A DNA stretch of 64,000 nucleotides from Nitrospirota bacterium (GTDB taxonomy: Bacteria > Nitrospirota > UBA9217). Each line of letters begins with the position of its first letter. Position 1 is the first letter of the stretch. The stretch covers positions 47,480-111,479 of the forward strand of contig CAWIIS010000004.1 of assembly GCA_963836175.1 (NCBI GenBank). The letters run 5' to 3'. The position numbers and the translations under genes were made by a program. Positions 29,960 to 31,003 of the stretch are shown here, in pieces. The notes below the pieces were generated by a model that searched no databases, had not been told where the DNA came from, and worked only from the letters and a program-made list of their open reading frames with translations.

Positions 29960-29997
29960 GGGTCAGACTTAAAGATTGAGTTGTAGACACGTGCCGG
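29960..29997. repeat. 38-bp perfect direct repeat, copy 1 (GGGTCAGACTTAAAGATTGAGTTGTAGACACGTGCCGG)
   Basis: identical to 30966-31003; flanks diverge immediately outside. Confidence 0.8.
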
Positions 29998-30181
29998 GAT
30001 ATTTGCTATTCTCTGGCATGTGCTAGGAAACCACGTATTGACAGCGTTGTTTGTAGCTGATAAGAATCTCGATAAATTTGCGGAAATTGAGGGGCCCTTC
30101 AAAAATCTTCTGTTTTTCCAGGGCAGGTACACCTCATGCGGTTCCATGCGGTTGCCCCATACGGTTAATTAAAACTAGCTT

Positions 30182-30691
30182 ATGAATTTTATTCGTCACA
30201 ATATCCTGCATTTTTTAATTATCGTACTGATAATGAGTTTGATGGTTATTACGTATAAGAGAAATATTGTTTGGCAGAACGAAGTAGTTATCTTGAAGGA
30301 CGCTATAAGCAAAGGCTCTGAGAAAGTGAGATTGTACAACAATCTGGGTGCGGCTCTCTTCACGCAAGGCCGATTTGAAGAATCAATCAGCGCCTATGAA
30401 GCGGCCCTGAAGTTACAGCCTGATCAGCTAGAGGCACATATCGGTATCGGCATTGCCTGCGTGAGCCAAGGACTGTATGAGAAGGCTTGGCAGCATTATC
30501 AAAGGGCCTTAGAGTTGAAGCCATCAGCTGCCTTAAGAGCATCGATACATTATCATCTTGGATTAATGTTCCTTGTGCCACAAATCGAAGATGAGGAAAG
30601 GGCCCTTAGGGAATTCGAGATTGCGTTGGAATATGCGCCGAATGACAGATTGGCTCGAATGATGCTAAATTATCTCTCAAATTCTAAATAA
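30182..30691 (+). CDS. membrane-anchored TPR-repeat protein
   Basis: N-terminal TM helix then TPR repeats; paralogue of 39953-40696; AT-rich, lies between the 38-bp direct repeats. Confidence 0.6.
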   Translation: MNFIRHNILHFLIIVLIMSLMVITYKRNIVWQNEVVILKDAISKGSEKVRLYNNLGAALFTQGRFEESISAYEAALKLQPDQLEAHIGIGIACVSQGLYEKAWQHYQRALELKPSAALRASIHYHLGLMFLVPQIEDEERALREFEIALEYAPNDRLARMMLNYLSNSK

Positions 30692-30734
30692 TCCGTAAGC
30701 GAGTAAAAGGCGCCGGCAGTCGCCGGTGGCTCGG

Positions 30735-30960
30735 GTGGGCTATTTCCTGATTTTTGATTCGAGCAGAGCAACCCGTTTTGCGAGCGCGTCGAATTCGTCG
30801 TAATCGACTTTTCTTTTCAGCTGACTTTTAAAAATTGAACATCGGATTTGATGATTTGTACGTCCTTCATCAAAGCTCCGATCATTTCGGTTTGAGTCTT
30901 CCGCGCAGCCTTGATATCCTGGTATTGTTCAGCGATGAGATTGATCTTTGATTCGAGAAG
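30735..30960 (-). pseudogene. small coiled-coil protein remnant (frameshifted)
   Basis: minus-strand translation TLLESKINLIAEQYQDIKAARKTQTEMIGALMKDVQIIKSDVQFLK then frame change to KVDYDEFDALAKRVALLESKIRK*. Confidence 0.3.
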
Positions 30961-30965
30961 CGTAT

Positions 30966-31003
30966 GGGGTCAGACTTAAAGATTGAGTTGTAGACACGTG
31001 CCG
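30966..31003. repeat. 38-bp perfect direct repeat, copy 2
   Basis: identical to 29960-29997. Confidence 0.8.

Follow-up and report, generated by a model that had tools for sequence, protein, structure and literature searches.

A segment of about 1 kb in the 64-kb stretch of Nitrospirota DNA analysed here (the window in what follows) is bracketed by two copies of an identical 38-mer, GGGTCAGACTTAAAGATTGAGTTGTAGACACGTGCCGG, and our preferred reading, held tentatively and at somewhat less than an even chance, is that a small non-autonomous DNA circle entered this site by one crossover in a short common sequence, with the repeat left behind as a passive recombination scar. Such a scar is in our judgment the most likely origin of the patch; that the patch is self-mobile is less likely. 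A dedicated att or cassette system, as had been proposed in the original prediction, is not supported, and a mobile cassette is a possible reading.

The 38-mer occurs exactly twice in the 64-kb window, both times on the + strand, at 29960-29997 and 30967-31004, and no further copy with 3 or fewer mismatches is present on either strand. Only ~5e-14 exact 38-mer pairs would arise by chance in a sequence of 64 kb, and a 38-mer match was seen in 0 of 100 shuffles; the repeat is real and far exceeds chance expectation. The perfect 38-bp direct repeat that had been predicted is thus borne out by two exact copies, as are the position of copy 1 and the start of copy 2, but copy 2 ends at 31004 and not 31003, and the start-to-start spacing is 1007 rather than 1,006 bp. 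The match also extends leftward by 8 nt, to give 46 nt with 44/46 identity. Copy 1 (29952-29997, + strand, non-coding) shares its final 38 nt with copy 2 (30959-31004, + strand), which departs from it only at 30964 and 30966, the two mismatches being clustered at the left edge (GTGTC in copy 1, GTATG in copy 2); a match of at least 6 of the 8 nt in this extension has P = 0.004. The flanks had been expected to diverge immediately outside the 38-mer, which is correct for the right side, but on the left the similarity runs these 8 nt further. Sensitive alignment past both edges of the repeat reveals no residual similarity in the flanks, nor does the repeat belong to a longer gene segment that is duplicated and present at many loci, the outcome that the original prediction had named as counting against its reading.

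It is very improbable, in our view, that the structure is an assembly artefact in which two strain haplotypes were joined chimerically at a common 38-mer. The source is a metagenome-assembled contig of 363 kb, many frameshifts are found in neighboring genes, and the TPR protein encoded between the copies is recorded from the NCBI/ENA MAG only, being absent from the records of the Logan sample in which the HigBA side is found, all of which would be in keeping with such a chimera. However, a Logan short-read unitig (L001, from ERR10755943), which corresponds to window positions 30975-32246, begins exactly 30 nt inside copy 2, the branch point expected of a k=31 graph if the 38-mer has two right-hand contexts. 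Because this independent unitig breaks at the k-1 overlap inside copy 2, as two true contexts predict, it argues against an artefact of this one assembly. A 38-bp repeat is, moreover, too short to mislead k=141 or long-read assemblers. The strain in ERR10755943 differs from the window at four places in the 5' region of Lhr and at none in the 1036 nt of the island that the unitig covers.

Between the copies lie one live gene (TM-TPR) and one dead fragment (coiled-coil), in convergent orientation. The leader of the TM-TPR gene (29998-30181, + strand) contains a sigma-70-like element, TTGACA-18-AAGAAT at 30038-30067, and has no similarity to the sequence after copy 2. The ORF that follows (30182-30691, + strand) is intact, encoding 169 aa with one N-terminal TM helix and ∼3.5 TPR repeats, in agreement with the earlier description of a TM-TPR gene with its own promoter-like element. 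Its counterpart in membrane-TPR proteins of ∼850 aa is the 'last TM helix + RNxVW + first TPRs' part, to which it aligns, and a stand-alone paralogue of 247 aa in the core genome (39953-40696) shares 31% identity with it, while a search for relatives with more than 50% identity among 1.84 billion cluster representatives (50% identity) returned the protein itself alone. We considered the ORF as the tail of a larger disrupted gene and rejected this option; with nothing of such a gene left upstream, and with a paralogue that stands alone, it is taken to be a complete small gene.

A spacer with a GC-rich hairpin (30692-30740; terminator-like site at 30725-30744) separates the TM-TPR gene from the coiled-coil pseudogene (30741-30957, - strand), which comprises the 3' 72 codons of a 101-aa family (MEITENKLKEIL...) that is abundant in Nitrospirota MAGs. 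Its DNA is 96% identical to full-length copies in loci L007 and L008. The fragment had been described as a frameshifted mini-gene and the frameshift is indeed there, as a 1-nt deletion that converts GTCGAGCTG to GTCAGCTG, but the description was incomplete: the gene is 5'-truncated as well, without its first 29 codons and its promoter, and the homology stops at 30957, ∼1 nt from copy 2. With the 5' end missing at copy 2, one 'end' of the insert is therefore a broken gene and not a defined terminus. Apart from the coiled-coil fragment, the 1.2-kb segment has no match in plasmid and phage collections or in the loci that were fetched.

The bracketed DNA has a GC content of 43.7%, compared with 58.9% to its left, where a frameshifted DUF309 gene (29351-29726, - strand) is found and a 123-nt GC-rich palindrome (29724-29846) lies between this gene and copy 1. 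The original prediction of a ∼1-kb AT-rich insertion is accurate as regards the composition of the bracketed DNA, but similar values (43.7-45.9% GC) continue past copy 2, through a unique spacer of 119 nt (31005-31123, 43.7% GC) and a HigB/HigA toxin-antitoxin module (31124-31833, + strand; HigB 31171-31452, HigA 31464-31775), and the AT-rich block extends from 29998 to 31833. The HigBA module is 85% identical to loci L005 and L006, which have a PIN/HicB pair upstream instead. It ends in a palindrome (31785-31843), of which the stretch GGGTCAGcCTT at 31827 is a part.

Enclosing the repeat patch is a strain-specific low-GC island of 8.7 kb (23300-32003), its GC content being 46.4% where the left-hand core has 55.7% and Lhr 62.3%. 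The island comprises an odd tRNA-like sequence, an IS5-family transposase, the frameshifted DUF309 gene, the repeat patch and the HigBA module. Several island ORFs are without a Pfam match, two of them without an NCBIfam match as well, and the decayed genes of the region include DUF309, the coiled-coil gene and Lhr. DNA alignment with the 15 closest Lhr loci places the point at which homology with the relatives resumes at ∼32004, 58 nt upstream of the Lhr start, and to the left of this point the content of these 15 loci is unrelated to the window. The modules also differ in their relatives: L013 shares 92% identity with 28197-28930, L007-L012 match the coiled-coil fragment, and L005 and L006 match the HigBA module. 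Judged from these alignments we take the locus to be a recombination hotspot. In L013, the closest species representative, the same hotspot holds another imperfect direct repeat (33/39), made up of copies of the Lhr leader, that flanks a 3.75-kb block with no recombinase among the ORFs as read by us, rather than with a family library. Because the repeat in L013 is a different one, repeat-flanked insertion at the hotspot is not tied to the present 38-mer. A second copy of the Lhr leader, as in L013, was sought in the island of the window, and none was found.

In order to establish what the repeat itself might be we compared it with the sites of known systems. When the 101 nt around each copy were folded as single-stranded DNA, for the two strands in turn, the z-scores were -1.5, 0.6, 0.0 and 0.4 (-1.5 and 0.0 for copy 1, and ∼0 on either strand for copy 2), as against z = -6.1 for a hairpin at 28150-28206 in the same island; with no hairpin of its own, the repeat was rejected as an attC site. 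Dyad symmetry in the 46-mer, sought with arms of 8-13 nt and spacers of 4-9 nt, is at best 62.5% complementary, a value equalled or exceeded by 262 of 300 shuffles. An Rfam search at a permissive threshold returned noise alone, and the repeat does not lie within a tRNA. The 28-30-bp Xer/dif site, with inverted 11-bp arms, does not describe it either: dyad symmetry is lacking, and the cumulative GC skew shows no sign of a terminus, as it climbs monotonically from one end of the window to the other. The template and variable repeats (TR/VR) of a diversity-generating retroelement, which are about 100 bp or longer, have adenine-specific mismatches and are accompanied by a reverse transcriptase (RT), were likewise discarded, with a repeat of 46 nt, mismatches of the G/A and C/G type and no RT among the ORFs scanned.

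No recombinase gene was found in the patch, in the island or among the other ORFs of the window that were scanned, the sole transposase among them being the IS5-family DDE enzyme at 24522-25607. This transposase lies 4.4 kb away, and direct repeats immediately flank a discrete segment, as they do in transposon and IS insertions and in MITEs, so we weighed a target-site duplication by a transposase, a casposase-like enzyme or some other staggered cut, for which the element would be 961 bp long. Such an origin is effectively refuted. The original prediction had set it aside on the grounds that 38 bp is too long, and this judgment stands: we know of no target-site duplication as long as 38-46 bp, the present repeat being several-fold longer than those known from transposons. 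In addition, the repeat is imperfect at one edge, terminal inverted repeats are absent at 29998 and 30958, the insert carries no transposase and occurs as a single copy, and one of its ends is a broken gene. Since the mismatches fall at an edge and the boundaries are sharp, a crossover of two pre-existing similar sites fits better than a fill-in duplication.

We searched for other copies of the repeat. Its 22-nt core, TTAAAGATTGAGTTGTAGACAC, has 0 matches in 185,579 species genomes. In JGI metagenomes there are 2 matches (L002 and L003), a 24-mer that lies in an IS4-family leader and precedes the transposase ATG by 25 nt, and in IMG/VR there is 1 (L004), within the RdRp coding sequence of an RNA virus. 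The flanks of all three show random-level similarity to the window, and we treat them as isolated 22-24-nt k-mer matches that are probably coincidental rather than homologues; four shuffled control 22-mers gave 0 viral matches, which leaves the coincidence unexplained. The 38-mer is absent from 80 loci around Lhr orthologues, and with L002-L004 set aside its best match in 1.3 Mb of related loci is 24/38. A collection of 15 billion proteins (5.8 billion clusters) contains no called protein that spans the repeat in its only open frame, plasmid and phage collections give no match, and exact-protein look-ups of the neighboring genes led only to the Logan unitig and to the diverged HigBA loci L005 and L006. 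Neither an empty site nor any other cassette bounded by the 38-mer, the two things for which a search had been suggested along with the original prediction, turned up in the genome, metagenome, viral, plasmid and phage collections or in the 1.3 Mb of related loci.

These results bear directly on the proposal that the repeat arose by duplication of an att site or marks the conserved ends of a cassette-type element, with a dedicated site-specific recombinase encoded elsewhere, an explanation that we regard as unlikely though not negligible. The patch could in this case be a CIME-like cis-mobilizable element or, alternatively, a unit of tandem accretion in which a 46-mer and the TPR gene are followed by a 46-mer and HigBA. 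Direct repeats with heterology at one edge fit attL and attR, and to this extent the earlier proposal holds; each copy also sits at the left edge of an AT-rich module, 184 and 166 nt, respectively, upstream of the next + strand gene, and the branch in the Logan unitig points to at least two right-hand contexts of the 38-mer in a second strain. However, no recombinase is encoded by the ORFs scanned in the 64 kb, the repeat has neither dyad symmetry nor an attC-like hairpin, the unit ends inside a truncated pseudogene, and the searches described above recovered no empty site and no other cargo: the core is missing from the species genomes and recurs elsewhere only in 22-24-nt matches with random flanks, related loci are without the 38-mer, and no called protein spans it. 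A degenerate third copy was sought at the right edge of the HigBA unit, where only the GGGTCAGcCTT stretch, within the null range, was found. CIMEs and tandem accretion at the att sites of ICEs and IMEs are documented (PMC5704250), and the patch resembles them in being a short segment, free of integration genes, between attL/attR-like direct repeats and in being followed in tandem by a module that starts with the same repeat. It differs from these documented cases (PMC5704250) in that no integrase can be assigned to it, the repeat lies outside any tRNA or conserved gene, there is no third att copy and no dyad core, and its end is a truncated pseudogene as opposed to a decayed element backbone.

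Integrons are the other mobile system that the surroundings call to mind. At 28150-28206 there is a strong attC-like hairpin with CCCAAC and GTTGAT boxes, 5-nt spacers and a bulged base (z = -6.1, as above); an element resembling it separates toxin-antitoxin pairs in L005, and the homology of the next ORF with L013 begins at its GTT box. In relatives, AAC...GTT palindromes precede the coiled-coil gene, and in two of them, L012 and L008, integron-integrase fragments (TIGR02249, E = 1e-45) lie 0.2-2 kb from it. The island is plausibly a decayed cassette array, and both this resemblance and the integrase fragments next to the coiled-coil gene in relatives lend some weight to a site-specific origin of the patch. 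Like integron cassettes and CALINs, the island has a low GC content and an attC-like hairpin and is an array of toxin-antitoxin pairs and small ORFs that are mostly on the same strand, the patch is a cassette-sized unit, and the coiled-coil gene adjoins integron-integrase remnants and AAC...GTT palindromes in relatives. Unlike them, the 38/46-mer is unfolded and without the R''/L''-L'/R' architecture, the unit consists of two convergent genes, one of them truncated, and no intI gene is present among the window ORFs scanned. A home-made scanner for attC sites failed to tell the island apart from core DNA and overlooked the best site, and nothing is drawn from it.

The placement of the two copies could also reflect a function in cis, in which case selection would have kept the 38-mer as a promoter, an insulator or a protein-binding sequence ahead of two modules that were acquired independently. 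The copies have the same orientation and lie at similar distances, 184 and 166 nt, from the + strand start codon that follows. Stop codons occur in all three + frames of the 38-mer with the spacing TAA-N4-TGA-N4-TAG, a 10-bp near-palindrome, GACACGTGCC, was noted within it by inspection, and the identical 24-mer in the IS4-family leader lies just ahead of a start codon. Nevertheless, we consider such a role improbable, as only two copies exist in 64 kb and none in any relative, a promoter match, and a weak one, is obtained from copy 1 only, three-frame stops are expected by chance in ∼10% of 38-nt sequences by our own estimate, and the IS4-family match, with its random flanks, may itself be chance.

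A further possibility, which strikes us as rather improbable, is that a larger and older tandem duplication, or a pair of paralogous modules, once stood here and that only 46 nt are now left in common, these 46 nt possibly being kept identical by gene conversion while the rest was replaced or deleted. The modules that make up the patchwork of the island each have their own history, several genes of the region (DUF309, coiled-coil, Lhr) are decayed, and cassette duplication is common in integron arrays. However, both boundaries of the repeat are sharp, sensitive alignment detects no residual similarity in the flanks, and 38/38 identity directly beside unrelated DNA is unlike the gradual decay of an old duplication.

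A passive recombination scar is, as stated at the outset, the reading that we favor. In the scenario that we envision a resident 46-nt sequence would have been located at the left edge of the AT-rich HigBA module, and a non-autonomous circle of ∼1 kb would have carried a slightly different 46-mer between the TM-TPR gene and an already truncated coiled-coil cassette gene. Integration of the circle by one reciprocal crossover inside the common 38 nt (a Campbell-type insertion) would leave a hybrid 46-mer on each side of the insert, with the sole heterology (GTGTC versus GTATG) at the left edge, outside the region of exchange. Over a dedicated self-encoded system we would favor recombination by the host, through short homology or independently of RecA, or else a recombinase that acts in trans from another part of the genome, and the patch could be lost again through recombination between the repeats. 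The circle, the enzyme and the order in which the steps followed one another are what we infer from the arrangement of the present sequence; the direction of the event, insertion here as opposed to loss elsewhere, is likewise something that we infer, because the searches recovered neither an empty site nor a donor locus nor a circular form.

Several observations argue for a scar. The insert is a mosaic, one end of which is a broken coiled-coil gene, the patch contains no recombinase, and the 46-mer has no fold, no dyad and no Rfam match. The setting is a recombination hotspot in which modules have separate relatives, and in L013 another repeat is found at the same hotspot. On the other side, the same 46-mer is needed beforehand in two unrelated contexts, which hints at some property of the sequence, such as a site or an element end, and the copies are placed with more order than a random scar would lead one to expect, each at the left edge of an AT-rich module and 166-184 nt ahead of a + strand gene. 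A homology of 38-46 bp is also near the lower limit for efficient RecA-dependent exchange, which counts against the scar. Islands that lack a recombinase and move via flanking repeats independently of RecA are documented (PMC5426353), and the E. coli H47 genomic island described there is similar to the present patch in its flanking imperfect direct repeats, in the lack of a self-encoded recombinase and in plausible excision and integration by host RecA-independent recombination. By comparison with H47, the segment considered here measures 1 kb, its repeat is 46 nt and it is known from sequence alone.

As it stands the patch matters little, being one more repeat-flanked segment in a hypervariable, cassette-rich island of an uncultured Nitrospirota. 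What it does put on record is a way for such an island to grow, in which gene-sized pieces, broken ones included, would be joined at short common sequences without a local recombinase, and the closest relative, L013, provides a second, independent repeat-flanked case at the same hotspot. It is a decidedly long shot that the 38-mer is instead a conserved sequence that bounds, or is recognized in, an as yet undescribed kind of non-attC cassette in the integron-like variable arrays of these Nitrospirota, moved in trans by a recombinase encoded elsewhere, in which case the TPR and HigBA units would be two tandem cassettes. Were the 38-mer to bound many different cargos, a new cassette system would be defined.

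Directly upstream of the Lhr gene in the closest species representative (locus L013), an imperfect direct repeat of 39 nt (33/39 identical; 5387-5425 and 9174-9212), whose sequence is that of the Lhr leader, brackets a 3.75-kb block. As an insertion flanked by repeats, the block parallels the repeat-bounded patch of the window, with which it shares the hotspot. From reading of the ORF translations, as opposed to a family search, it carries RsgA-like, DHFR-like and hypothetical ORFs, and no recombinase was seen in it by the same reading.

The Lhr-like helicase gene of the window (32062-36659, plus strand) is split by at least nine reading-frame changes, whereas the first 354 codons of the L013 orthologue are intact. 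The DUF309 gene (29351-29726, minus strand) is likewise frameshifted, and the remaining long genes of the window are intact; the disruption reflects either a real pseudogene or a locally poor consensus. Lhr also contains an in-frame insert of ∼120 nt (32968-33089, encoding ...PLPSVGEGWGEG...) that is present in both the window and L013 and missing from the other aligned Nitrospirota orthologues, and that looks like a small repeat-type insertion inside the coding region. The interval that separates repeat copy 1 from the DUF309 start codon contains a GC-rich imperfect palindrome of 123 nt (29724-29846), with an inner fold of ∼-23 kcal/mol, for which Rfam returns weak 'M23' noise matches on both strands.

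In both copies of the repeat the frame stays open to the right past the internal TAG, giving plus-strand open frames at 29998-30172 (copy 1) and 31005-31161 (copy 2), each of which would encode a short peptide, hydrophobic and then charged. The peptides read TRAG-IFAILWHVLGNHVLTALFVADKNLDKF... past copy 1 and TRAG-SLAVGMFFVVLSIIVKSLKQIEK... past copy 2, they share no detectable similarity in sequence, and neither frame has a clear ribosome-binding site.

A 24-mer from the centre of the repeat, ACTTAAAGATTGAGTTGTAGACAC, recurs identically in two metagenome matches (Ga0209369; L002 2871-2894 and L003 51-74), where it belongs to the leader of an IS4-family element present in multiple copies and occupies the loop of a GAAGCGACC/GGTCGCTTC hairpin, 25 nt ahead of the transposase ATG. 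An RNA-virus RdRp gene (L004 1206-1227) also shares 22 of the 24 bases. Four shuffled control 22-mers gave no matches in the viral collection. In neither the IS4-family leader nor the RdRp gene are the flanks of the 24-mer related to those of the window repeat.

The low-GC island carries at its left edge a tRNA-like sequence (23643-23716, plus strand), detected by ARAGORN, which left its type unassigned ('tRNA-???'), and by the Rfam tRNA model (35.9 bits); this sequence is possibly an integration target that has become degraded. After it come a long imperfect inverted repeat (23689-23770) and, farther on, an IS5-family transposase (24522-25607).

Palindromes resembling attC sites (…AAC, a stem with a bulged base, GTT…) are placed between small ORFs: in the window (28150-28206), in the diverged HigBA locus L005 (1564-1609), and upstream of the coiled-coil gene in the Nitrospirota loci L008, L009 and L012. 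In L012 and L008 the coiled-coil gene also has fragments of an integron integrase nearby (TIGR02249, E = 1e-45). The island probably represents a decayed array of integron cassettes that lacks intI.
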